Of a stretch of 64,000 nucleotides of DNA, positions 16,781-55,735 are shown one piece after another (the stretch's first letter is position 1; each line of letters begins with the position of its first letter). This DNA comes from a candidate division WOR-3 bacterium (GTDB taxonomy: Bacteria; Hydrothermota; Tepidihabitantia; SM23-42). Below the pieces are notes generated by a model that was given only the letters and a program-made list of their open reading frames with translations, was not told the DNA's origin and did no database searches. The translations under genes and the position numbers were made by a program. The DNA lies in NCBI GenBank assembly GCA_029858255.1, contig JAOUFJ010000006.1, positions 4,285-68,284 on the forward strand. Reading direction: 5' to 3'.

Positions 16781-18988
16781 CTATTTTGTATACCGGAATT
16801 CCCTGCCTATTGATATATAGTAATTAACGCGAGCTCCGATAAAATTTTCTTCATCGGTTTCGCCAATTCCCATAACGACGGTGAACGGACCGATCGGTGT
16901 ATTGGTTCTGACGCCAATGCCTGCACCCCAGTGAAGTTCTGATGCCGGGTTCTCGTTCCGGATAAGATCATCAAGACGTTCAAATGTAGCGACGTTGGAA
17001 ACCAACTGCAAATATACTGGGTAATCTTTCTGGTCCAGCAGGTTGAGTATCCTGTATTCAAGACCGAGATGCAAGATGGTACGGTTCTTGGTCGTGAAGA
17101 ATCCATTTTCGTATCCGGTGAGATTACTGCCGCCTGTATGATAATAGTAATCCCATGCCGGATCGCCGTGAGAGAATCCCAGGTTCAATCCCGGATTGAT
17201 CAATACACGTGAGGACAATGGTATATAGTGATCAAATGAAAAATCGATCCGGATGAAATCAGAGGAAGCTTTTAACCTTTCTGTAGAATATATGATTTCT
17301 GTTTTATATGATGAACCTTTATTGGGCAAATGCAGATCGTCGTAAGTGTTGTACTCCATCCGGAAAGTTGGTCCAACTATCCATTCATTCTCTGGTATCG
17401 AATCGAAGACCGGTATTTGTGGCAATCTGTGAATCGCTTCCCGTGCCGTAATGCCGAAGTTGAAAAAAGCATTGCGTCCGAGTATATACCCTGCCTCAAT
17501 CAACGCTCCATGGTAGGTTGTAGTATAAGCTGTCAACCAGGTATTATTCTCGAAAAAAGGTCTATCTATGGATCCCCGGAAGATATCGATCCGGTAGCCC
17601 ATCGGGACGGCGAATAGCCGGGTGCCTGTTAATCCGAGTCTTACGGCACGTGGATTGCCGAGATTGAGCGCGCCGCGTATGCTCGCTCCGGTTCCCCATA
17701 GGTTGCTTTGTCCACCCTCAATGCCAAGGATGAGATTGTCGCTGTTGTCATATCGAACACCCAGTGCGTAGAATCCATATTCAGACTCTTTGGTTTGGTA
17801 GATAACTTCAACCGAATCTTCGCCGTGAAATATCAGTCTGTAATTTATGTCCGAGAACAAACCTGTGTTGTATAGCGAGATCATATCTCTGTGCAGCAAT
17901 TGAAAATCGAGTTTCATGCCTTTCTTCGTCCTCACGAGATGGCTTATAGTCGAAGAACCGGTGACTTCAAGACCTTCAAATCGAATACCGCTTACGAAAG
18001 GCAAGGGACGACGCGTTATCCCGTTGGGCTTTACATATGCCTTTCTACCATTCAACTTAGCTCTTATCTCAGGTAATGCAGCTTCCGCTGCTTTTTCGCC
18101 GGCCGCGATCAGTTCACGGGCACGGTTGAAGTCCGATGACATGAAAGGATCGACATTCGGTTCAATAACAATATCCGTAAGCTGCAATTGTGCACGGTAA
18201 TCGCAGATATTTATTAGATCCATTGTGCGTGAAATTACGTCTATCAAACCTTCGTTGTTCGATCTTTGTTTGTTACGGATAGTTGTACTTGCTATGATCA
18301 GATCGGGCTCGAATTCAAGCAGAGGCTGAACCGGAAGAAACTGCTGGACACCGCCATCAATGAGCTCAAGTGTATCAATCGTCTCCGGAGAGAATACTCC
18401 GGGAATAGCTATACTTGCTCTTATTGCCTGTTCGAGTCGTCCATTCTTCATGGTGATAAGATCGCCGCTTGTGAGATCGACTGCTATTGCCCGATAAGGG
18501 ATGGGAAGGCTGTCAAAATCGTAGTAAGTGTCGAATTCGATTTCTGACAATAGATTCATTAGCAAGAATTCGACGTTTTGAAGCGATATCAAACCGGACG
18601 GAAGGGTTGGAACGAATTTCTTGTGTCCTAATACAAGGATATATCGTTGGTTCTGCTGGCGTTCAGGTAGATAAAGCGCACCAAATGGAACGCTCGAGCT
18701 GAAGAGTTTGGAAAAATCTGCGTTGACAGCAATACTCTCTATTTCTGCTGCGGTGTATCCGGCTGCGTACACACCGCCCACGAGTGAGCCCATACTGTTT
18801 CCAACAATACAGCATGGGTGAATGCCCTCGCGCTCCAGTACCTTTAGCACACCGATGTGTGCAAATCCAAGCGCAGCACCGCCCGATAGGGCATATCCGA
18901 TACGGACCTGCGATGTATCACCATCCTTAGTGTCAGGGGAAGGAACGAGGCTAACAAAGAACGCTGTAATGATAAATATCGATATCAT
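16781..18988 (-). CDS. patatin-like phospholipase fused to POTRA/Omp85 (surface antigen D15-type) outer-membrane barrel (PlpD-like, type Vd-like)
   Basis: Patatin Gly-rich loop GGAALGFAHIGVL and the GxSxG nucleophile (GNSMGSLVGG) in the N-terminal part. The C-terminal half is beta-barrel-like with alternating aromatic patterns and an Omp85-type C-terminus. Confidence 0.75.
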   Translation of the reverse strand: MISIFIITAFFVSLVPSPDTKDGDTSQVRIGYALSGGAALGFAHIGVLKVLEREGIHPCCIVGNSMGSLVGGVYAAGYTAAEIESIAVNADFSKLFSSSVPFGALYLPERQQNQRYILVLGHKKFVPTLPSGLISLQNVEFLLMNLLSEIEFDTYYDFDSLPIPYRAIAVDLTSGDLITMKNGRLEQAIRASIAIPGVFSPETIDTLELIDGGVQQFLPVQPLLEFEPDLIIASTTIRNKQRSNNEGLIDVISRTMDLINICDYRAQLQLTDIVIEPNVDPFMSSDFNRARELIAAGEKAAEAALPEIRAKLNGRKAYVKPNGITRRPLPFVSGIRFEGLEVTGSSTISHLVRTKKGMKLDFQLLHRDMISLYNTGLFSDINYRLIFHGEDSVEVIYQTKESEYGFYALGVRYDNSDNLILGIEGGQSNLWGTGASIRGALNLGNPRAVRLGLTGTRLFAVPMGYRIDIFRGSIDRPFFENNTWLTAYTTTYHGALIEAGYILGRNAFFNFGITAREAIHRLPQIPVFDSIPENEWIVGPTFRMEYNTYDDLHLPNKGSSYKTEIIYSTERLKASSDFIRIDFSFDHYIPLSSRVLINPGLNLGFSHGDPAWDYYYHTGGSNLTGYENGFFTTKNRTILHLGLEYRILNLLDQKDYPVYLQLVSNVATFERLDDLIRNENPASELHWGAGIGVRTNTPIGPFTVVMGIGETDEENFIGARVNYYISIGREFRYTK

Positions 18989-37804: not shown

Positions 37805-40800
37805 TTAATGGATAATGATGATTTTCTCGCTCGTGACATCATTAGCAATGGATAGTACTGCGAAGTAGATTCCTGGCGCCAACCTTCTGCCCTTATCGTC
37901 ATGGCCATCCCAATTTACTGATGTATGCAAGTCAATATGTGATGATAGCCCAGAAAAAGTTTTTACCAGACGTCCAGTAACATCGAAAATTCTCAGGTCG
38001 ACTTCGCCACTCGCATACTGGTTTCTGTAATCATTTACGACGTATCGGATATCAGTTGAATACCTGAATGGATTTGGTCTGACATCGAGAATAAGTGGAT
38101 AGATGTTACTACTGCTATATTCCTCAAGGAAGGTTATGGCTTCAATATTAATGTCATCAATGTAGAATCCTTCTGCAACATCTCCATCATAGTCACTCTT
38201 GAAGGCAATTCTTAGTTGGATTGTGTCGCCGCCCGCGTATTGCCCGAGTGGATATTGGTCTTTGAACCAATCACCCTGAATGGCGCGGCTGCTGTCCAGC
38301 GCACCGCCTGTACCGATGAAGTTCAACGTGTCCGAGCCATTTCCATGCACTATTATGACATAAATGCCGTCAGAACCATAAATCGGTACTTCAAACCAAC
38401 GCATGAAGTTGAGTGTTGAATTATGGTCGACCATGAAAGGAATCGTTTGTATATAGCAATCCATATTATTGAGATAAAGACCATTTGATTCTTGGCCGCA
38501 ATACCATGCGTGATCGGCTGAGAATGCTCGGCGCGTTGAGATATGCCATTGGTTGTTACTTCCGCCTGTTGTCCAGAGGCCGCTGCCCGATTCCATATCG
38601 TCAATGAATCCGGTTTCGCCAATGAGTAATACTATGTCTTGGTTAAAATTGTACGATTCTGTTGCCATATTGAATGACAATTGCGGGTGATGACCAGGTG
38701 GGCAGGAAGATGATACTGCGACATGGAACGGACCAACTGCACATGTTGTGTCCGGTGGAATTTCCCCAGCGCTGACGCTATCGGTAATAACGGTGACGTA
38801 CGGGTCTGTCGAACTCAATGAGATCTGGGTTGTGTGAGCAAAACCATAGCCTGCGTTGGCGATACTAATGTTGATCTGGGCGGTGTCACCTGGCATGGTC
38901 GGGGCATTCGATACGGAAAAATCTGGTATGCTCAACTCCGGCGTACCCACCAAGATGCCGGGGTAGTGGGTTAGTGTCCTGCTTGCTTCTGTTATTTCGA
39001 GTTCAAAACTCAAGGTATGTGCATTTGTTGTATTACCAACGAGAATGGAAAAAGCATGGTCGAGGCATGTTGAGTCCTGCTGATTCAGTGTGCCTAGATA
39101 CTCAATACTGTCCGAAATTATGACGTAAGGATCTTGCGAACGCAGCCGGAAATCCATATTGTTAGCCGTTGCGTTACCGGTATTCTTGATCAGCAGTGAA
39201 AGCAGAATAATTTCGTTGGGATTGGCAATACCGTCGCCATTGCCGAGCGAGTCGTTGAGTATCCATCTCTGGTAATTTACATACGGGCCACTGACCACGG
39301 GAAGGGTCGTCTCCAAAGGAACGTAATTTTGTGCCGTAACAGTGAGTTCAAAATCACCAAGGGTGGCCGGGCTTGCCTGCAGAAATATCTGTCCACTCAC
39401 ATCTGTATAGCCTGCGGCGTAGGATTCATCTGCCTTCATGAGGCAGACCAAGGCGTTTTTGATGGGCGCGTTAGTGTTCTTGGCCCTCACTGAGATGAGG
39501 ATGCTACTGCTACCAAGAGCAACTGATTGGGGTGCAGCTACGGCGATTGATTCTGGTAATGCGGTCCAGACCATCATTTCCGGTTCGCCCAATAGATTTA
39601 ATTGATACTGATGCCAGCGGTAGACATTCTTTTCACGTGAATACGGGATAAAGTATGCTTTACACATTGCCAATGCTTCCCCGATGTGGTAGTTATTCTC
39701 GACGAGCAGTGAGTAGAAGAAACGGCTGTCGAATATGTCGGATATTCCGAACCCAGGATTCCCGGGTGATCCCCACCCGTAGCTTGAATTCCCGACGAAT
39801 GCTACGCCGCCGCCATTTTCGTTATTCATCCAGCCTTCAGCGATGCATGCGAAATCAAAGGCGGCAGTCCAGCAGCCAAGGCTAAAGATAATGCCATAAC
39901 GCGGCGCATTTGTGATCGTATCGAGGTCGATCGTATTGAGGTATCCGACACCTACACCCATGACACTTGTGCTGCCATGTCCGTCGTGATTAATCAGATT
40001 CTGTCCACTCCTTATTGCGGCCATTACGCTTTGACGGTTTTCATTACCAAGTGTTTCATAGAGTTTGGTTACAACAAGATTGGGTAGGAATGATTCTTCC
40101 TCTATACGGTTCTTATGAATCGCCTGGTCGGTGAACGGGCTCTGCCAGAGCACTTCAGCGAGCAAGAGTGCCTTATCGAGATATTCGTTTGGTGGATTCT
40201 TTTCATAGGTCAGGATTTTGTTGACAAAATTCTGTGCTTCTGTTACGGAAGAGACCGGGGCTCTTCCGACCGATAGGTCAGGATATAGATCTATGCTATC
40301 TTCTACCTCACCATACAAACCATCACCATCAAAATTCCAGTTACCCTGCAAATCGGCATAGTACAGGTCACAAGGCAGTGAATCCTCTCGGTTCCAAATG
40401 GAAGCACTGCACGTCATTGCATAGGCAAATCGACAGGGGATCATGTATGTATCACCACCAAGCAGGACGTACTGAATGTTCGAATCAGGCAGAGTCTTTA
40501 TGTAATTACGAATGCACGCAGCGTTATCTTCACCGGTGTAATTCGCCAGTATCCAGTCGACTGTCCTAACGTGTGCCGGTAGTCCTTTCTTAGTTTTCCA
40601 ATCTGCCAACCTCTGGAAAACTGTGTCGAACGGCGGATTACTAATGATGAGATAGGTAATATCATCAGGATCACGAGTTCTTTCATATTCCGAGATATCC
40701 TCTGGATTAATGATCATCTTTTTTAAAAGAGAAGATTGCGCGGTGCGTTTAGTCCCTCCACGGTAGGTGATGCGGAATCTCACTGATCTGTTAAAAATGA

Positions 40801-49810: not shown

Positions 49811-50794
49811 ATGAAGAAAACCGACCTCAATGATATTGACGAGCTCCGGAAAAGTTATATAGGGATGCGTGATGAAATCGGCAAACTTATCATCGGTCAG
49901 AAAGAAGTGATCGACCAGGTCCTGGCGTGTCTGTTTTGTAATGGCCATTCTTTGATAATAGGGGTGCCGGGCCTGGCAAAAACGATGCTTGTCAATACTA
50001 TCGCGGACATCCTTGCCCTTACATTTAACCGGATCCAGTTCACCCCTGATCTAATGCCCGCCGACATAACCGGCACGCAGGTAATTGAGGAAGATCTGAG
50101 CACCGGCCGAAGAAATTTCCGTTTTGTCAAGGGGCCTATTTTTGCAAATGTCATTCTGGCCGATGAGATCAACCGCGCTCCACCCAAAACGCAATCGGCT
50201 TTGCTGCAGGCAATGCAGGAATACAAGGTCACTTATGGCGGTGAGACACACAGTCTGTCCTTGCCTTTCTTTGTGCTGGCAACACAGAACCCGATCGAGC
50301 AGGAGGGCACTTACCCACTGCCTGAGGCACAGCTAGACCGCTTCATGTTCACGATTTTCATAGAATATCCATCCTCAGAGGAAGAGGTCGAGATCGTCCG
50401 GACCACAACTTCGGCTTATGAGGTCGATCTGGAGAAAGTGCTCGACGGGAGCAAAGTCCTCCGTTTTCAGAAACTAATAAGGAAAATGCCGGTTGCTGAT
50501 GATATCATCGAAAAAGTGGTCCGGCTGGTTTCCTTGACCAGGCCGAATCATGCGAGTGCTCCACAAAATGTGAGGAATTATGTCAGTTGGGGCGCAGGAC
50601 CACGTGCTTCCCAGTATCTCATCCTGGGCGCGAAGGCCGTTGCTGCCCTTGACGGTCGGTACTCACCAAACCTCGAGGACGTTAGAAGCGTTGCCCGGCC
50701 GGTATTGAGGCACCGGGTCATCACCAATTTCGCCGCCGAAGCTGAAGGGGTGAAGTCGGACAACATAATCGAAGAGCTTCTGCAAGCTCTCTGA
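49811..50794 (+). CDS. MoxR-family AAA+ ATPase
   Basis: Walker A GVPGLAKT, Walker B ILADEINRA, sensor regions. 327 aa, typical MoxR length and start. No adjacent VWA-domain partner. Confidence 0.9.
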   Translation: MKKTDLNDIDELRKSYIGMRDEIGKLIIGQKEVIDQVLACLFCNGHSLIIGVPGLAKTMLVNTIADILALTFNRIQFTPDLMPADITGTQVIEEDLSTGRRNFRFVKGPIFANVILADEINRAPPKTQSALLQAMQEYKVTYGGETHSLSLPFFVLATQNPIEQEGTYPLPEAQLDRFMFTIFIEYPSSEEEVEIVRTTTSAYEVDLEKVLDGSKVLRFQKLIRKMPVADDIIEKVVRLVSLTRPNHASAPQNVRNYVSWGAGPRASQYLILGAKAVAALDGRYSPNLEDVRSVARPVLRHRVITNFAAEAEGVKSDNIIEELLQAL

Positions 50795-50806: not shown

Positions 50807-51661
50807 CTATTTGATGATTATTGAAGGATTCAGATTGAACAAGACAGTAAGTACTCCGATAAATACAAAATAAATCACGAAAACACGCTTCTCACTGAGA
50901 GGCTTCTGGATGCATACATGGCCGCTGGCCAGACCCAGGGGGATGCAAATGGCAAAGAGCAATGAATATTGAAGTATGACTGCCACGGAAACGTAGGATA
51001 GTAATATCAGTACAGCATTTACGAGTCTCCCTCTTTCAAGTCCAATCAAGGTAAACAGCGTCGTTGTGTCTGTTCTGCGGTCACCTTGATAGTCTGCAAG
51101 GTCTCGGAAGTTCAGGGCTAGAAAAAGAGGTACCATGATGAATAATGACGCTCTCAGAGGAAATGATAGAAATGGCCTCGATGCTTCGTAGAGACTGTAT
51201 CCGGCGATCGCTGCGAGTAATGCCCCCAGCGCAAGCAGGAATATCGATAGTGGATAGAAGCGTTTCAGCCGAAATGGTTTCGAGGAATATGCAAAGTGCA
51301 GGATATTGCCGAGTATGACAATAAGCAGGGTGCGGTAGCCGGTACCCAGTGCCAGCAAAATGGAGATCACGAGGCACACTACTGCAATTTGCAGGTATGC
51401 CCCCACTGAAACGTATCCGCAATTGATCGGTGTGCGTCTTTTTACTATCGCATCAGCCCTGACGTCGTTGACGTCGTTCAGAATCACCGAAGCCTGGAAG
51501 GAGAAGAATACGGACAGAAGAATGAGGCAACTATTCAGTAAATAGATCGGTTCGTTGAATGTCTTTGCACCCAGAAAGATACCGAAGGCGGTCGGAAAAA
51601 GATAATGTACTGCGATATATGGCCTTGAGCCGAAAAACAGACAGCGGATGATCCTAATCAT
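50807..51661 (-). CDS. UbiA-family prenyltransferase
   Basis: 8-9 TMs. First Asp-rich motif NDVNDVRADAI (NDxxDxxxD) on a cytoplasmic loop. 284 aa. 8-bp overlap with the upstream TPR membrane-protein gene. Confidence 0.65.
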   Translation of the reverse strand: MIRIIRCLFFGSRPYIAVHYLFPTAFGIFLGAKTFNEPIYLLNSCLILLSVFFSFQASVILNDVNDVRADAIVKRRTPINCGYVSVGAYLQIAVVCLVISILLALGTGYRTLLIVILGNILHFAYSSKPFRLKRFYPLSIFLLALGALLAAIAGYSLYEASRPFLSFPLRASLFIMVPLFLALNFRDLADYQGDRRTDTTTLFTLIGLERGRLVNAVLILLSYVSVAVILQYSLLFAICIPLGLASGHVCIQKPLSEKRVFVIYFVFIGVLTVLFNLNPSIIIK

Positions 51662-53726
51662 TTGTCAGTATCCCATCAAGTGCGATTCTGGCCTGGGTAA
51701 AGCCAGGATTGACTTTCAGCGCGTCCGAATACATGTTTATTGCTTCTTCATTCCGGCCAAAAGCTTGCGCGATCAGGCCAAGATTATAATACGCCTCAGC
51801 CTGGAGCGGATTGATTTTCAGCGATTTCCTAAAATGATCCTCAGCTTTCTTATATTCCTTTTTCATCATATAGATGGCGCCGAGATTATTGTACAGTGCA
51901 TCAATATCAGGATCGAGGACCAACGCATCGAGGAACGCCTGCTCGGCTTCAGAGAGATCACCTTTGGCATAGTACGCCATACCCCTGCCTGCATATGCTA
52001 GTGTCGACCGTCCATTATCGTATATTGCTCTGTCGTACTCTATTATCGCTTCTTCGTAATTACCTGATTGTAGAAAACAATCTCCCCGTATCTGGTGAAA
52101 TCGTGCCCGGTGCATGCCGTGCTTTTTCCCGGCAAGTAAGAATGCATCCATCTGTACTTCTGAACCCCTACGAGCCGCTGCTTGAGCGAGCAGGGTAAGG
52201 AATTCAGCGGGTTCGATATTTTCACTTACAGCATGACGATATAAACGGTCAGCCTTATCCTGCATGCCTTTTTGCATGTACGCTTGCCCCAGGGAGAGTA
52301 TGGTTTCGTAATCGAGGCGGTCGACTGCCTGGAGTATAGCAATGCCTTCATCGCTTCTACCTTTATGAAGATATGATTGACCGAGTCTCTTTCTGATCTC
52401 ATCCGTTTTCTCGAATGAATAGGCGATCTCGTAATGTCTTATTGCATCGCTATGATCACCGTTGATGAAATAGTCCCAGCCCGTGATTTTGTGGCCATGC
52501 GCTTCAATTCTGGCATGGTCATAGGGGATGATACATGACAATGTGGTTTCCTGGAAGATGATTGCGAATCCAGCGATGAAGGACAGTACAGAACCTACTC
52601 CGACAGTCATGTATTTCGACAAAAAACGGTTGGAAATTGTTTGCTCCAGCTTTGGAGCGAGGTAGGTGGCATAAACGAAGTACGAAAGAATTACAAAGAA
52701 AAAAGTCAATCCGATCGCGAGTGCTGCGAAAAGAGCGGAAATCGACAGAAGGATGAATGGGAATGATGATTTGTCTCTGATCGAGGCCAGCTTTGCCGTA
52801 TGAACAGTGAATAGCGCAGCGAGTAAGATAAGATAGTGTATCGGACTGATAAAGATGAATGGGAAATATGGACTGACCAGGACGACGGCGTAAGCAAGGC
52901 CCAACAGCGTGCCGATGATCAGCAGAAGGGATTTTCTGATTTCCAGTATGTCGTGGGCAAGTTCACGATCGTATTTTCTCACGACAAACCAACCGATGAC
53001 GACTGTCGAACAGATGAAAATGATCGAATAATTCTGACTGTCAACGTTCAGTATGCCGGCGGAGATGATTGTTCGGTAGTGTAATTGGGTAAACCCTAGA
53101 GACGAAGGGATCTGCGCGATCGTGTTGGGCAATGCACCGTGAATGAAAATGATCAAATATGAAATAACGGGTGCAATGAGGGTTTTCAGGATACTCCTCG
53201 TTTTTGTGAAGACATACATGCTGGCACCGAAAAGGATGGCTACGATCTCGATGCGTTGGCCCCAGCTCGCCTGGAGCAATTCCTGTCTGAAGTCAAAGAG
53301 TCGGTAAATTTGTGTGAATTCTTCGATTCCTTTCAAATAGGTCAGTGTGTACCCGCTGCCGCGTGATACGATTATGTCGATGAAAGGGGTGATTACGATC
53401 ACTGACAGACCGATAAGCAGGGGTTTCGCGATGATATCCGGCTTTTCTTTCGTCATTAGCAGGAAGAAGAAAAGGAACCAGATGTAGAGTGAGATGTAGA
53501 ATAGCGGGAAATGTGAGAAGATCATAAAAAAGGAATTTTCAGTGATGGGGGAGAAGCCGAATGTCTGGGTACCTTCGAACGCGCTCTCAAAGATATTGCG
53601 GACAGTTATTATGGAAAATAGACCTATGAGTCCGAGGTGAAAAGAATACTTTTCTTCTTCGAGTCTATTGATTATTGATTTAATGCTTGCACCTCTTTCT
53701 GTGCAATAAGAAAAAGGGGGAGTCAC
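51654..53726 (-). CDS. integral membrane protein (about 11 TMs) with C-terminal tetratricopeptide repeats
   Basis: The N-terminal 430 aa are polytopic. The C-terminal 250 aa hold at least 5 TPR units (AYYNLGLIAQAFGRNEEAINMYSDALKVNP etc.). The N-terminal region is paralogous to the partial ORF at 63406. The annotated GTG start lies inside the upstream terminator hairpin. The next in-frame ATG (at the MIFSHF residues) would remove part of the conserved region. Confidence 0.6.
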   Translation of the reverse strand: MTPPFSYCTERGASIKSIINRLEEEKYSFHLGLIGLFSIITVRNIFESAFEGTQTFGFSPITENSFFMIFSHFPLFYISLYIWFLFFFLLMTKEKPDIIAKPLLIGLSVIVITPFIDIIVSRGSGYTLTYLKGIEEFTQIYRLFDFRQELLQASWGQRIEIVAILFGASMYVFTKTRSILKTLIAPVISYLIIFIHGALPNTIAQIPSSLGFTQLHYRTIISAGILNVDSQNYSIIFICSTVVIGWFVVRKYDRELAHDILEIRKSLLLIIGTLLGLAYAVVLVSPYFPFIFISPIHYLILLAALFTVHTAKLASIRDKSSFPFILLSISALFAALAIGLTFFFVILSYFVYATYLAPKLEQTISNRFLSKYMTVGVGSVLSFIAGFAIIFQETTLSCIIPYDHARIEAHGHKITGWDYFINGDHSDAIRHYEIAYSFEKTDEIRKRLGQSYLHKGRSDEGIAILQAVDRLDYETILSLGQAYMQKGMQDKADRLYRHAVSENIEPAEFLTLLAQAAARRGSEVQMDAFLLAGKKHGMHRARFHQIRGDCFLQSGNYEEAIIEYDRAIYDNGRSTLAYAGRGMAYYAKGDLSEAEQAFLDALVLDPDIDALYNNLGAIYMMKKEYKKAEDHFRKSLKINPLQAEAYYNLGLIAQAFGRNEEAINMYSDALKVNPGFTQARIALDGILTND

Positions 53727-53737
53727 CTCCCCCTTTT
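53716..53737 (-). terminator. rho-independent terminator after the BNR/CTD gene (minus strand)
   Basis: Minus strand reads GGGGGAG-gtga-CTCCCCC followed by TTTTTCTTATT. Plus-strand stem at 53716-53722 / 53727-53733. Confidence 0.75.
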
Positions 53738-53751
53738 GCGTGGTTCTTTTT

Positions 53752-55491
53752 CTATTCGAGAATCACTTTTCTCGTGGCGTCGACATCATCGTATTCCAAT
53801 TTTAGGAAGTACACACCTTTTGGTAAATCGGCGCCTACATTGTCTTTACCGTTCCAGGACACAGTGTACGTGCCCGCGGTTTTGTGTTCATGGACCACCG
53901 TTGCGACATGTTGGCCTATCGCGTTGAACGCACGGATTGAAACCATTCCACTGACCGGAACCGTGTATGAGAAACGGGTCATGGAAATGAACGGATTCGG
54001 ATAGCTCGGCCCCAGAAGGTTTCTTGGCGCGACGATCTTGTTTTCCTCGACCCCGGTATTTGACCAGGCATCAAAATAGACATTGTCGCCGCCTTCACCG
54101 ACGTAAGCGAGCGCCGGAACTCCGGGCGCCTGGAAGGTCTGGATCGGCCTTGTGAATTCGGGCACCGAGTCATTGAACGTGTCTGGCTGTGCCCAGCTGC
54201 TGTCTGTATCCCATACAGTAGTATGTATGATCTGTCCGGTCCAGGTTGTGTCGTTCTCAGTAATTATGAAGCTGAGGTATGGAGTGTAGTGGGTAGCCGA
54301 ATCGTAAACGACGATGCTTGGCAGAACTTCGTGCTTGAAGTAGGAAGACACGAACGCAGGTGACGACCATGCGCCGCCTTCGTCTTGTGTCCAGGAATAC
54401 CACAGGTCATAGTCATATGGTGTGCCAGACCAGCGCCTCGGCCAGACGACCCAGGCATCGTCCGTGCCATCGTGAGAAGCCGCGATCTGTGGGCCGTGTT
54501 TAATTAACGTATCGGTTTGAACGACCTGAGAGCTAGCCCAGTTGGTACCGTAGTTTGTGCTGACGCGGGTTTGTATGTTCTTGTTGCCACCGGTCGGTCT
54601 GTAGAGATAAGCCTCGAAAATGGTACCGCCGCTGCCGTAGGTGATGTCCGGATAACCGGACCCGCTAAATTGAAGCTGCGTGGCTGCTTCCCAGGTTGTG
54701 CCATAATCGACCGTGCTGGTCCACCAGATTCCGTCCTGACCTGGACCCCCGAGAGATTTATGGTACGCGCAATAAACATAGTAGCCGGACGGCCAGTCTG
54801 CCCGGTCTGAGCAAACCGAGTAATTGGTGACTGTGTCTGCGGTGCTCTCGATCCCCGTGCCGCTCAGCGTGCCCGTATCGTCGTACCTGGCACCATAAAG
54901 ATTACCGTTGCCCAGGGAATTGCGGACGATGATGTGGTAATAACTGCCGGTTGGGCCATGGATGATTTCGGGTTCATATACCGCAGACGGCGTAGTGAAA
55001 AAGAAGCCGTGTTCGTATGCCCAACTCAGTCCGTTATCTAACGAGATGAATACCCTCACCAACGAGTCAAGGCATGCGACAACTGCGCGGACCGTATCAC
55101 CGCGGTGATAATCAACCGATATCGCTTCGTCATCAACGTCTGCAACCATAGCCCAGCTGTTGTAATTGACCTGTCCACTGTATATTATCTTATCATCACC
55201 CCATCTCAAGAGCGGGTCGTCTTCCGGCTTAACATTGATGACGTCTGGGAGCCTGTATTCATCCGCTGGCAGCGACATGCTCTTGTATTCTTCGAGCAAT
55301 TTATTGTAGGTTTCCATATCCTGATTCTTTCTGGCTTCCATCAGGCGCTCGACAAGCGGATGAACTTCAGGAAAAAGGTCAGCGCCGATCGCTGGTTCAG
55401 GATTCTGTATGGTGACGTCATCGGAAATGTTCTTCTGCGGCGCTGCAAACGCAACTGCACATATTGCCAACATAATTACCACTTTGTTCAT
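53752..55491 (-). CDS. secreted BNR-repeat (sialidase-like beta-propeller) protein with T9SS C-terminal sorting domain
   Basis: Signal peptide. BNR-type motifs (YGTTWEAATQ, TNYGTNWAS, DEGGAWSSP). C-terminus PNPF...VSIRAFNAIGQHV...GVYFLKLEYDDVDATRKVILE is CTD-like. Confidence 0.7.
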   Translation of the reverse strand: MNKVVIMLAICAVAFAAPQKNISDDVTIQNPEPAIGADLFPEVHPLVERLMEARKNQDMETYNKLLEEYKSMSLPADEYRLPDVINVKPEDDPLLRWGDDKIIYSGQVNYNSWAMVADVDDEAISVDYHRGDTVRAVVACLDSLVRVFISLDNGLSWAYEHGFFFTTPSAVYEPEIIHGPTGSYYHIIVRNSLGNGNLYGARYDDTGTLSGTGIESTADTVTNYSVCSDRADWPSGYYVYCAYHKSLGGPGQDGIWWTSTVDYGTTWEAATQLQFSGSGYPDITYGSGGTIFEAYLYRPTGGNKNIQTRVSTNYGTNWASSQVVQTDTLIKHGPQIAASHDGTDDAWVVWPRRWSGTPYDYDLWYSWTQDEGGAWSSPAFVSSYFKHEVLPSIVVYDSATHYTPYLSFIITENDTTWTGQIIHTTVWDTDSSWAQPDTFNDSVPEFTRPIQTFQAPGVPALAYVGEGGDNVYFDAWSNTGVEENKIVAPRNLLGPSYPNPFISMTRFSYTVPVSGMVSIRAFNAIGQHVATVVHEHKTAGTYTVSWNGKDNVGADLPKGVYFLKLEYDDVDATRKVILE

Positions 55492-55735
55492 TGATCCTCC
55501 TTGTAGTACGTGAAAAACAGACTGTAACTTGTTTGCCCCAATATCACCCCCTTTTGTTTTTGATGTATTTTTTACTATTTGATTATTATATTGAACGAGG
55601 ATTAAATGTCAAGATTTTTCTATGGTTTCCTGTCAGCAACGGGTGTGCAATATCGTGCGATATTATTACGGTACACAGATTTCGTTTTCCTTTTATTCTC
55701 GATGTATAGGTTTTGCAGATATTTTGAAGTAGAAA

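Follow-up and report, generated by a model that had tools for sequence, protein, structure and literature searches.

A split, TPR-bearing member of a two-module UbiA membrane protein family in a candidate division WOR-3 bacterium

This work deals with a pair of overlapping genes in a 64,000-nt stretch of DNA (hereafter, the window) from contig JAOUFJ010000006.1 of a candidate division WOR-3 bacterium, a placement with which the homologs of the encoded proteins agree. One of them encodes a 284-aa putative UbiA-family prenyltransferase and the other a 690-aa polytopic membrane protein that ends in an array of tetratricopeptide repeats (TPRs), and both lie downstream of the gene for a secreted 579-aa Asp-box protein (Table 1). 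UbiA enzymes are the makers of quinones, hemes, chlorophylls, archaeal lipids and cell-wall lipid carriers. As judged from sequence comparison, the locus is shown here to belong, in split form, to a large and hitherto undescribed family of two-module membrane proteins, in which an N-terminal domain of six transmembrane (TM) helices (hereafter, the N-domain) is either fused to UbiA proteins of one particular clade or encoded beside them. An earlier note on this DNA had described the UbiA-like gene, its NDVNDVRADAI motif and its 8-bp overlap with the 690-aa gene, all of which are seen in the table of open reading frames (ORFs): the two ORFs have positions 51654-51661 in common, the UbiA start lying over the end of the 690-aa gene.

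Table 1. Features of the locus, with coordinates as positions in the 64,000-nt window and the strand given per feature.
Feature	Position	Strand	Basis or remark
Active UbiA-family prenyltransferase gene, 284 aa (putative activity)	50807..51661	-	ORF table, Pfam PF01040
690-aa polytopic and TPR protein gene	51654..53726	-	ORF table
N-domain, residues 1-250 of the 690-aa protein, six TM helices	52977..53726	-	
Pseudo-UbiA remnant, residues ~251-405, TM7-TM11	52512..52976	-	
C-terminal TPR array, residues ~406-690, ~8 repeats, plus stop codon	51654..52511	-	
Intrinsic-terminator-like hairpin AAAAGGGGGAGG-TGA-CTCCCCCTTTTT, between the Asp-box and 690-aa genes	53712..53737	-	
579-aa secreted Asp-box protein gene with type-A sorting domain of the type IX secretion system	53752..55491	-	
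Promoter-like site TTGACA-16-TATAAT, 12/12 positions, ~95 nt upstream of the Asp-box gene	55585..55612	-	consensus match only
Second secreted protein with type-A C-terminal sorting domain, 554 aa	55798..57462	-	
GAF-GGDEF protein, degenerate KDDEF signature	61544-62713	+	Pfam
Lipoprotein-like ORF, 183-193 aa	62727/62757-63308	+	
First 198 codons of a 518-aa N-domain-UbiA fusion paralog; UbiA half past the window end	63406..64000	+	

The assignment of the 284-aa protein to the UbiA superfamily is based on a match to Pfam PF01040 of 85.3 bits (cut-off 34.2; E=5.5e-24) over profile positions 2-222 of 250, and on two Asp-rich motifs, NDVNDVRAD and RDLADYQGD, which both align with the family consensus. 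The protein reaches 90-130 bits with the UbiA domains of proteins in which the N-domain is fused to UbiA, either alone (N-UbiA) or followed by TPRs (N-UbiA-TPR), as opposed to 28 bits against the closest solved structure, the digeranylgeranylglyceryl phosphate (DGGGP) synthase of M. jannaschii (6m31), and it can hence be placed in the same clade as the fused domains. None of the curated NCBIfam cut-offs for ChlG, BchG, homogentisate phytyltransferase (HPT), DGGGP synthase (DGGGPS), decaprenyl-phosphate phosphoribosyltransferase (DPPR synthase), UbiA, MenA and EboC is reached (score/cut-off of 52.7/313 for ChlG, 50.6/226 for HPT, 33.7-38.7/269-296 for DGGGPS-type models, 32.3/207 for DPPR synthase and 30/275 for UbiA), and the same sub-cut-off pattern is found across 74 fusions of the family. 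For these fusions and for the 284-aa protein alike, the best models are those of ChlG/BchG, archaeal DGGGPS-type enzymes and HPT (67-72 of the 74 members), and DPPR-synthase models match 5 of the 74; the analogy with DPPR synthesis put forward in the earlier note is therefore weak. With the ChlG/BchG-DGGGPS-HPT group, which comprises C20-diphosphate-using subfamilies, the protein shares a PF01040 match above the gathering score, the NDxxDxxxD and (K/R)DxxDxxGD motifs and its best scores. It differs from all characterized UbiA subfamilies in its N-domain partner, which is obligatory here and is found in none of them.

Across the family, the consensus of the second motif reads KDxKDxxGDxxxGxxTLP, which we take to be of the DGGGPS/ChlG type. 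In L031, a locus from a Bacteroidetes metagenome-assembled genome (MAG), a geranylgeranyl reductase gene (GGR_cat and FAD-binding domains; L031:2891-4078) lies directly upstream of an N-UbiA fusion on the same strand; a 396-aa gene of the same cluster occupies the same position in a Chlorobiota locus (L030:5739-6926), the reductase domains having been read in L031 alone. A polyprenyl synthetase gene also adjoins a family gene in four metagenome loci. Taken together, the second motif, the reductase in L031 and these synthetases hint at a C20-type donor.

The companion 690-aa protein reads, in our analysis, as an N-domain of six TM helices followed by a pseudo-UbiA of five helices without catalytic motifs and by TPRs. 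The AlphaFold2 model of its residues 1-412 has 11 long helices (pLDDT 77, pTM 0.78), and the pTM suggests a single compact bundle. Pfam detects TPRs from residues ~410 to 685 (TPR_1 and TPR_2, E ~1e-32, 110 bits against cut-offs of 27-28), in agreement with the earlier description of some 11 TM helices plus a TPR array. Residues 250-405 align in MAFFT with the helices that open the UbiA domain in the fusions, and VHTAKLASIRDKS occupies the place of the NDxxDxxxD loop. When compared by hhalign with four UbiA sequences only, this region matched UbiA with 10% probability; with family-wide profiles the probability was 97.9-98.6% (E 3.5e-13 to 1e-14, 136-146 columns). The N-domain profile, used as control, gave 0.2% against the UbiA profile, and on the same value the N-domain was rejected as a further degenerate half of UbiA. 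On the UbiA profile of 294 positions, the match extends from 1 to ~181-207 and places the first Asp-rich motif within a deletion; the HMM of the region also matches the UbiA domains of relatives P0082 and P0109 (E ~1e-5) and P0085 (E 5e-4). The remnant is a homologue of the N-terminal two-thirds of the family UbiA domain, the second half being absent. Membership in the UbiA superfamily calls for fold homology combined with the catalytic Asp-rich motifs, a combination that residues 251-405 do not present. These results show that the internal UbiA of the WOR-3/TA06 lineage has decayed to a five-helix remnant, with an intact UbiA of the same clade encoded directly downstream.

Enzymes of the UbiA superfamily have a cytoplasmic N-terminus, nine helices and Asp-rich loops facing the cytoplasm, as seen in solved archaeal homologs (e.g. 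4od4 and 4tq3). Because the UbiA N-terminus is cytoplasmic, the six-helix N-domain of the fusions must both begin and end in the cytoplasm. In the triple fusion P0040, the TPRs come straight after the last of 15 (6+9) hydrophobic segments. Helix counts are thus odd both in P0040 and in the 690-aa protein, with its 11 helices, and the TPR array is accordingly predicted to be periplasmic. The distribution of Lys and Arg residues agrees with this topology under the positive-inside rule, since loops 92-96, 175-181, 250-263, 314-322 and 357-372 of the 690-aa protein are positive and the other loops are not. The prediction draws on the 11-helix model, the positive-inside rule and the N-in topology of UbiA.

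The N-domain has no covering entry in Pfam, NCBIfam or PDB. Residues 1-410 of the 690-aa protein yield no Pfam or NCBIfam match even at E<=1, an N-domain profile finds no match among PDB sequences, and Foldseek comparison of the TM-domain model with PDB returns nothing better than E=0.5. No catalytic fold was recognized in these structure and PDB-sequence comparisons, and no UbiA or prenyl-synthase structures were among the matches of the N-domain model. When the 74 fusions were scanned one by one against Pfam at E<=1, UbiA was the sole consistent match. A transporter fold was also considered and rejected, since the best Foldseek matches (Rh, MFS and MATE, all with E>0.5 and a TM-score of ~0.15) amount to noise. 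The conserved residues of the domain are R43, E47, E51, H72 (in the HFPLFY block), P114, D117, G156, R158, E160, N201 and D229-N232. The charged and polar ones (R, E, H and D), together with the G.RiE block, are kept across 137 divergent members that are ~25-30% identical, and they sit inside TM helices or at helix ends. On the predicted topology, most of them fall toward helix ends on the periplasmic side, a placement that points to a binding or active site facing outward.

The size of the family became apparent in an exhaustive search of 1.84 billion cluster representatives (clusters at 50% identity) with a profile of 13 N-domains, which matched 1288 clusters at E<=1e-3 and 898 at E<=1e-10; a word-index search with the N-domain of a paralog encoded at the window end gave 2 matches only. 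Architectures were scored with HMMs built here for the N-domain, UbiA and the remnant region on those 147 of the 150 best matches that were newly found, ten of which were also checked against Pfam. The N-domain followed by UbiA accounts for 83 of the 147 (~500-550 aa). Some 33 carry in addition a C-terminal extension (740-956 aa; TPR in 6/7 checked), about 20 have the window type of N-domain plus TPR without a recognizable UbiA (~530-790 aa), and fragments make up the remainder. Source names, where given, read "UbiA family prenyltransferase" only, and the named ones belong to Edwardsbacteria, Planctomycetota and Elusimicrobiota MAGs. Scanning GTDB genomes yielded further MAGs, of WOR-3, TA06, Stahlbacteria, Theseobacter, Zhuqueibacter, Chlorobiota and Bacteroidetes, and family members are also carried by metagenome MAGs and loci resembling the candidate phyla radiation (CPR).

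In the WOR-3/TA06 loci, the gene for the N-pseudoUbiA-TPR protein is followed by an overlapping or directly abutting UbiA ORF (284-316 aa) in 14/14 GTDB loci with downstream sequence. The genes farther from this pair vary between sub-lineages, and the pairing is hence not mere inherited synteny. Fusion in most lineages and translational coupling here add up to a Rosetta-stone argument that the N-domain and its UbiA clade form one working unit, and the coupling of the UbiA and polytopic proteins proposed in the earlier note is in this respect borne out. The minimal N-UbiA proteins, which lack TPRs, still hold the N-domain. The contexts of 80 metagenome loci, with their housekeeping neighbors and others resembling type IV secretion system (T4SS) genes, are uninformative except for the four polyprenyl synthetases. 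One N-UbiA subclade (L032-L111) displays a conserved block of KsgA, UvrD, M23 peptidase, ComM and PrgI/VirB4-like T4SS genes, together with three conserved proteins without Pfam family (~295, 550 and 720 aa); this block looks like CPR/Patescibacteria synteny.

The genome under study also contains an unsplit N-UbiA paralog beside the split system. The earlier note had placed a second copy of the polytopic family at position 63406, and the relationship holds, in that the first 198 aa match the 690-aa protein at 32% identity (E=1e-13) and likewise contain the HFPLFY block. What did not stand is the architecture, which is that of a 518-aa N-domain-UbiA fusion and not of a TM-plus-TPR protein. The full gene was read beyond the window, on a contig that is identical to the window end at 700/701 nt (L001:10650-12206). 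Its product begins with ~230 residues that align with the N-terminus of the 690-aa protein at 30% identity (E=5e-20) and continues with a full UbiA domain (Pfam UbiA at residues 272-488), for which identity to the 284-aa UbiA is 27% (E=3e-13). P0028 (528 aa), a distant relative, is the same kind of fusion. On these alignments, the shared polytopic family is a separate six-helix module of ~230-250 aa, fused straight to UbiA in the paralog. In the UbiA half of the paralog, KNL replaces RPL after the first motif and KDIGHVEGD stands for KDxKDxxGD, at positions that are invariant or nearly so in the family; these deviations suggest altered substrate use or reduced activity.

Upstream of the paralog lie a degenerate GGDEF protein and a lipoprotein, as the earlier note had stated; the former shows a KDDEF signature and the latter corresponds to an ORF of 183-193 aa. 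Orthologs of the GGDEF gene precede the fusion gene in six related loci and those of the lipoprotein in four, and in L004 and L005 both genes are found at the locus edge, consistent with the window layout. The degenerate GAF-GGDEF neighbor hints at cyclic di-GMP-linked control of the paralog. Downstream, an orthologous 601-aa protein with FG-GAP repeats and a C-terminal sorting domain (CTD) follows the fusion in four related WOR-3/Stahlbacteria loci and in the window organism's own contig.

The split system is preceded by the gene for the 579-aa protein, in which a Sec signal peptide is combined with 3-4 Asp-box (BNR-like) motifs and, at the C-terminus, with a type-A sorting domain (FlgD_ig / Por_Secre_tail). 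The match of this protein to TIGR04183 (32.3 bits against a cut-off of 23, residues 497-578), together with its signal peptide, qualifies it as type-A cargo of the type IX secretion system (T9SS); comparison with PDB sequences gave only weak FlgD-type matches below significance, all in the C-terminal domain (E 0.5-0.7). In 14/16 related loci with upstream sequence, the gene directly upstream on the same strand encodes an ortholog that covers most or all of the 579-aa protein (35-74% identity), and the Asp-box positions and the signal peptides are retained in these orthologs. A partial ortholog is found in the 15th locus, and the neighbor in L009 has only the sorting domain in common. Of the 297 ORFs in the sampled loci, 42 carry the sorting domain, and more than half of these are genes adjoining the N-domain/UbiA system. 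The 554-aa CTD protein of the window is a distant relative of the 579-aa protein and stands by the cassette in close relatives only. Given the Asp-box and FG-GAP neighbors, both the split system and the fusion paralog are found beside secreted, beta-propeller-type T9SS cargo.

In the T9SS, the PorU sortase attaches cargo with type-A CTDs to anionic lipopolysaccharide. The window also encodes, at 37805-41260 (-), a 1151-aa protein with a Peptidase_C25 domain, a propeptide and a type-A sorting domain of its own. This protein shows partial similarity to PorU (102 bits; cut-off 420), which suggests that the organism has a T9SS-like cargo-processing system. Resemblance to T9SS cargo anchoring thus lies in the type-A CTD of the conserved upstream neighbor and in the PorU-like C25 peptidase of the window. 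The difference is that family members are also found in CPR-like loci from which CTD proteins are absent, and no link between the UbiA system and cargo anchoring was found.

Between the Asp-box and 690-aa genes, the strong hairpin AAAAGGGGGAG..CTCCCCCTTTTT is flanked by A- and T-tracts, and an equivalent G5/C5 hairpin with T-tract is present in 13/13 related loci folded. A hairpin between the Asp-box and TPR genes is listed for L004, L005, L007, L008 and L010-L019. The GTG start of the 690-aa gene at 53726 falls within the hairpin loop, and the 3' arm codes for TPPF, an N-terminus common to relatives P0002 and P0003. The Asp-box and TPR genes may therefore be linked by attenuated read-through instead of simple co-transcription, and the hairpin may act as an attenuator that sets the ratio of secreted protein to membrane enzyme. 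Promoter-like sites, such as the one upstream of the Asp-box gene, are not more numerous in the region than expected from shuffled sequence.

Other genes of the window may be mentioned briefly. A MoxR-type AAA+ ATPase (AAA_3 and AAA_lid_2; 49811-50794, +) is convergent with the UbiA gene and is kept at that place in the closest relatives only (L004, L005 and L011). A 735-aa fusion of a patatin-like phospholipase with an Omp85/BamA-type beta-barrel lies at 16781-18988 (-), an architecture that we take to be like that of PlpD-like type Vd autotransporters. The GAF-GGDEF proteins of the window are two, encoded at 41257-43260 (-) and 61544-62713 (+).

The reading that we favor, and to which we grant slightly better than even confidence, is that the locus encodes a split member of a family of two-module prenyl-lipid enzymes. 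The UbiA module would act at the cytoplasmic face, as all UbiA enzymes do, and would take a polyprenyl diphosphate, its chain being probably C20 (geranylgeranyl type), and pass that chain on to a small polar acceptor, yielding a lipid-linked product. In the outer leaflet, this product would be bound or chemically processed by the outward polar pocket of the N-domain. The remnant would mainly serve to preserve an odd number of helices and with it the periplasmic location of the TPR array, which would dock a protein partner there, the co-located secreted Asp-box protein with its T9SS CTD being the best candidate. Several points weigh against this reading. The scores against characterized subfamilies fall far below curated cut-offs, and both donor and acceptor are thus guesses. 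The outward orientation of the polar cluster is one that we infer from helix boundaries and the positive-inside rule, and the N-domain could be a non-catalytic module for substrate access or oligomerization. Association with CTD proteins is absent from the 80 CPR-like metagenome loci, and the link may be lineage-specific; moreover, the conserved terminator-like hairpin means that the Asp-box and TPR genes may not be co-transcribed. Finally, the family is known from MAGs alone, and every source name is generic.

Among the alternatives, the family might be a bacterial ether-lipid or phytyl-lipid synthase that resembles archaeal DGGGPS and makes bulk or specialized isoprenoid membrane lipids, with the N-domain supplying or positioning a glycerol-phosphate-type acceptor and with the TPRs and CTD neighbors being incidental. 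We consider this unlikely. In its favor, the closest solved structure is the M. jannaschii DGGGPS, DGGGPS-type models match 69-70/74 members, the second motif resembles what is presumably the DGGGPS/ChlG type, and a geranylgeranyl reductase or a polyprenyl synthetase adjoins the family gene in L031 and in the four metagenome loci, respectively. Homologs of geranylgeranylglyceryl phosphate synthase (GGGPS) and of DGGGPS have moreover been reported in FCB-group (Fibrobacteres, Chlorobi and Bacteroidetes) bacteria and in Parcubacteria (PMC7852524). Nonetheless, scores lie 3-8 times below the equivalog cut-offs, and the ChlG and HPT models score equally well or better, leaving the acceptor undefined. 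Furthermore, neither GGGPS nor glycerol-1-phosphate dehydrogenase was seen beside any of the loci, and an ether-lipid synthase would leave both the recurrent TPR fusion and the conserved polar cluster on the periplasmic side of the N-domain unexplained. Somewhat more doubtful is the notion of the 690-aa protein as a non-catalytic scaffold or regulator, that is, a pseudoenzyme with TPRs that would localize or control the standalone UbiA, its N-domain having no chemistry of its own. The UbiA-like part of this protein has demonstrably lost its catalytic motifs, TPRs are protein-interaction modules and the N-domain has no recognized catalytic fold, all of which fit such a role. On the other hand, the R, E, H and D residues and the G.RiE block of the N-domain have been kept in or at the ends of TM helices in 137 very divergent members, and the domain persists in minimal N-UbiA proteins without TPRs. 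Conservation and retention of this kind are seen more typically in binding or active sites than in passive scaffolds.

The earlier note had taken the 690-aa protein for a glycosyltransferase of the GT-C type (like ArnT, PMT, TMTC or DUF2723), in which the TPRs would form an acceptor arm and a DPPR-synthase-like UbiA would provide a polyprenyl-phosphate-sugar, an idea to which we now attach very little credence. Its appeal is easily understood. Eleven TM helices followed by a periplasmic TPR array recall TMTC/PMT-like layouts, the N-domain has conserved acidic and basic residues close to the periplasmic face, and some UbiA enzymes, such as Rv3806c, do make lipid-linked sugar donors. No GT-C family, however, is found for the 690-aa protein in Pfam or NCBIfam even at E<=1, nor for its 74 relatives in Pfam, and no GT-C structure is present among the Foldseek matches in PDB. 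Since helices 7-11 derive from UbiA, only six are left for a GT-C core, and the first periplasmic loop, EGTQTFGFSPITE (residues 51-63), in which the note had proposed to look for a DxD or DE motif, has neither DxD nor ExD, E51 being its only nearly invariant residue. The lack of support for a GT-C enzyme follows from the UbiA origin of helices 7-11 and from the lack of any GT-C profile or structure match; a fold other than GT-C, which the note had itself named as counting against its proposal, is what was found. The other outcome that it had named in this regard, a grouping of the UbiA gene with quinone or heme O prenyltransferases, was not observed. Comparison with the mycobacterial system, in which the DPPR synthase Rv3806c feeds GT-C arabinosyltransferases, leads to the same view, given that the active UbiA here reaches only 32 bits against DPPR-synthase models (cut-off 207) and that its partner does not have a GT-C fold. 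With GT-C enzymes bearing TPR arms (TMTC1-4, PMT-like and DUF2723/TMEM260 proteins), the 690-aa protein shares a polytopic domain followed by an extracytoplasmic TPR array, and possibly a common logic in which TPRs present a protein acceptor. It differs from them in showing no sequence or fold similarity, in that 5 of its 11 helices are UbiA-derived and the other six have no known relatives. A lipid-linked product may still be handled here by an outward-facing module with a TPR arm for acceptor docking.

The UbiA superfamily itself is well known, and what is new is a putative UbiA prenyltransferase system with a previously unrecognized, obligatory partner domain. No description of the N-domain-UbiA(-TPR) architecture was found in full-text literature on UbiA with TPR, FCB or CPR. 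The closest reports concern other UbiA contexts, namely the DGGGPS homologs of FCB-group bacteria (PMC7852524) and the YfiM-Lipocone operons (bioRxiv 10.1101/2025.01.14.632903), the Lipocone/YfiM-UbiA operons being set apart as another system by their neighbors. The interest of the family lies in its size, in its restriction to poorly known lineages and in a clean history of fission and pseudo-enzyme formation, which provides a clear case of domain fission leaving a pseudo-enzyme remnant as topological spacer. An attractive, if wrong, annotation as GT-C enzyme is at the same time corrected.

It is conceivable, if decidedly improbable, that the N-domain represents a new class of outward-facing, lipid-dependent transferase that, together with UbiA and the TPRs, forms a self-contained machine and lipidates periplasmic or secreted proteins by attaching to them the isoprenoid lipid made at the inner face, or a head group carried on it. 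Were this true, the targets in WOR-3/TA06 would be the co-located beta-propeller T9SS cargo proteins, and the system would constitute a previously unknown route for protein lipidation or surface anchoring in uncultured bacteria. More generally, the analysis defines a large branch of UbiA proteins, with at least 1288 clusters, whose hallmark is an unannotated six-helix partner domain, often combined with a periplasmic TPR arm, and it thereby offers a concrete and testable handle on a putative isoprenoid lipid pathway in uncultured bacteria.

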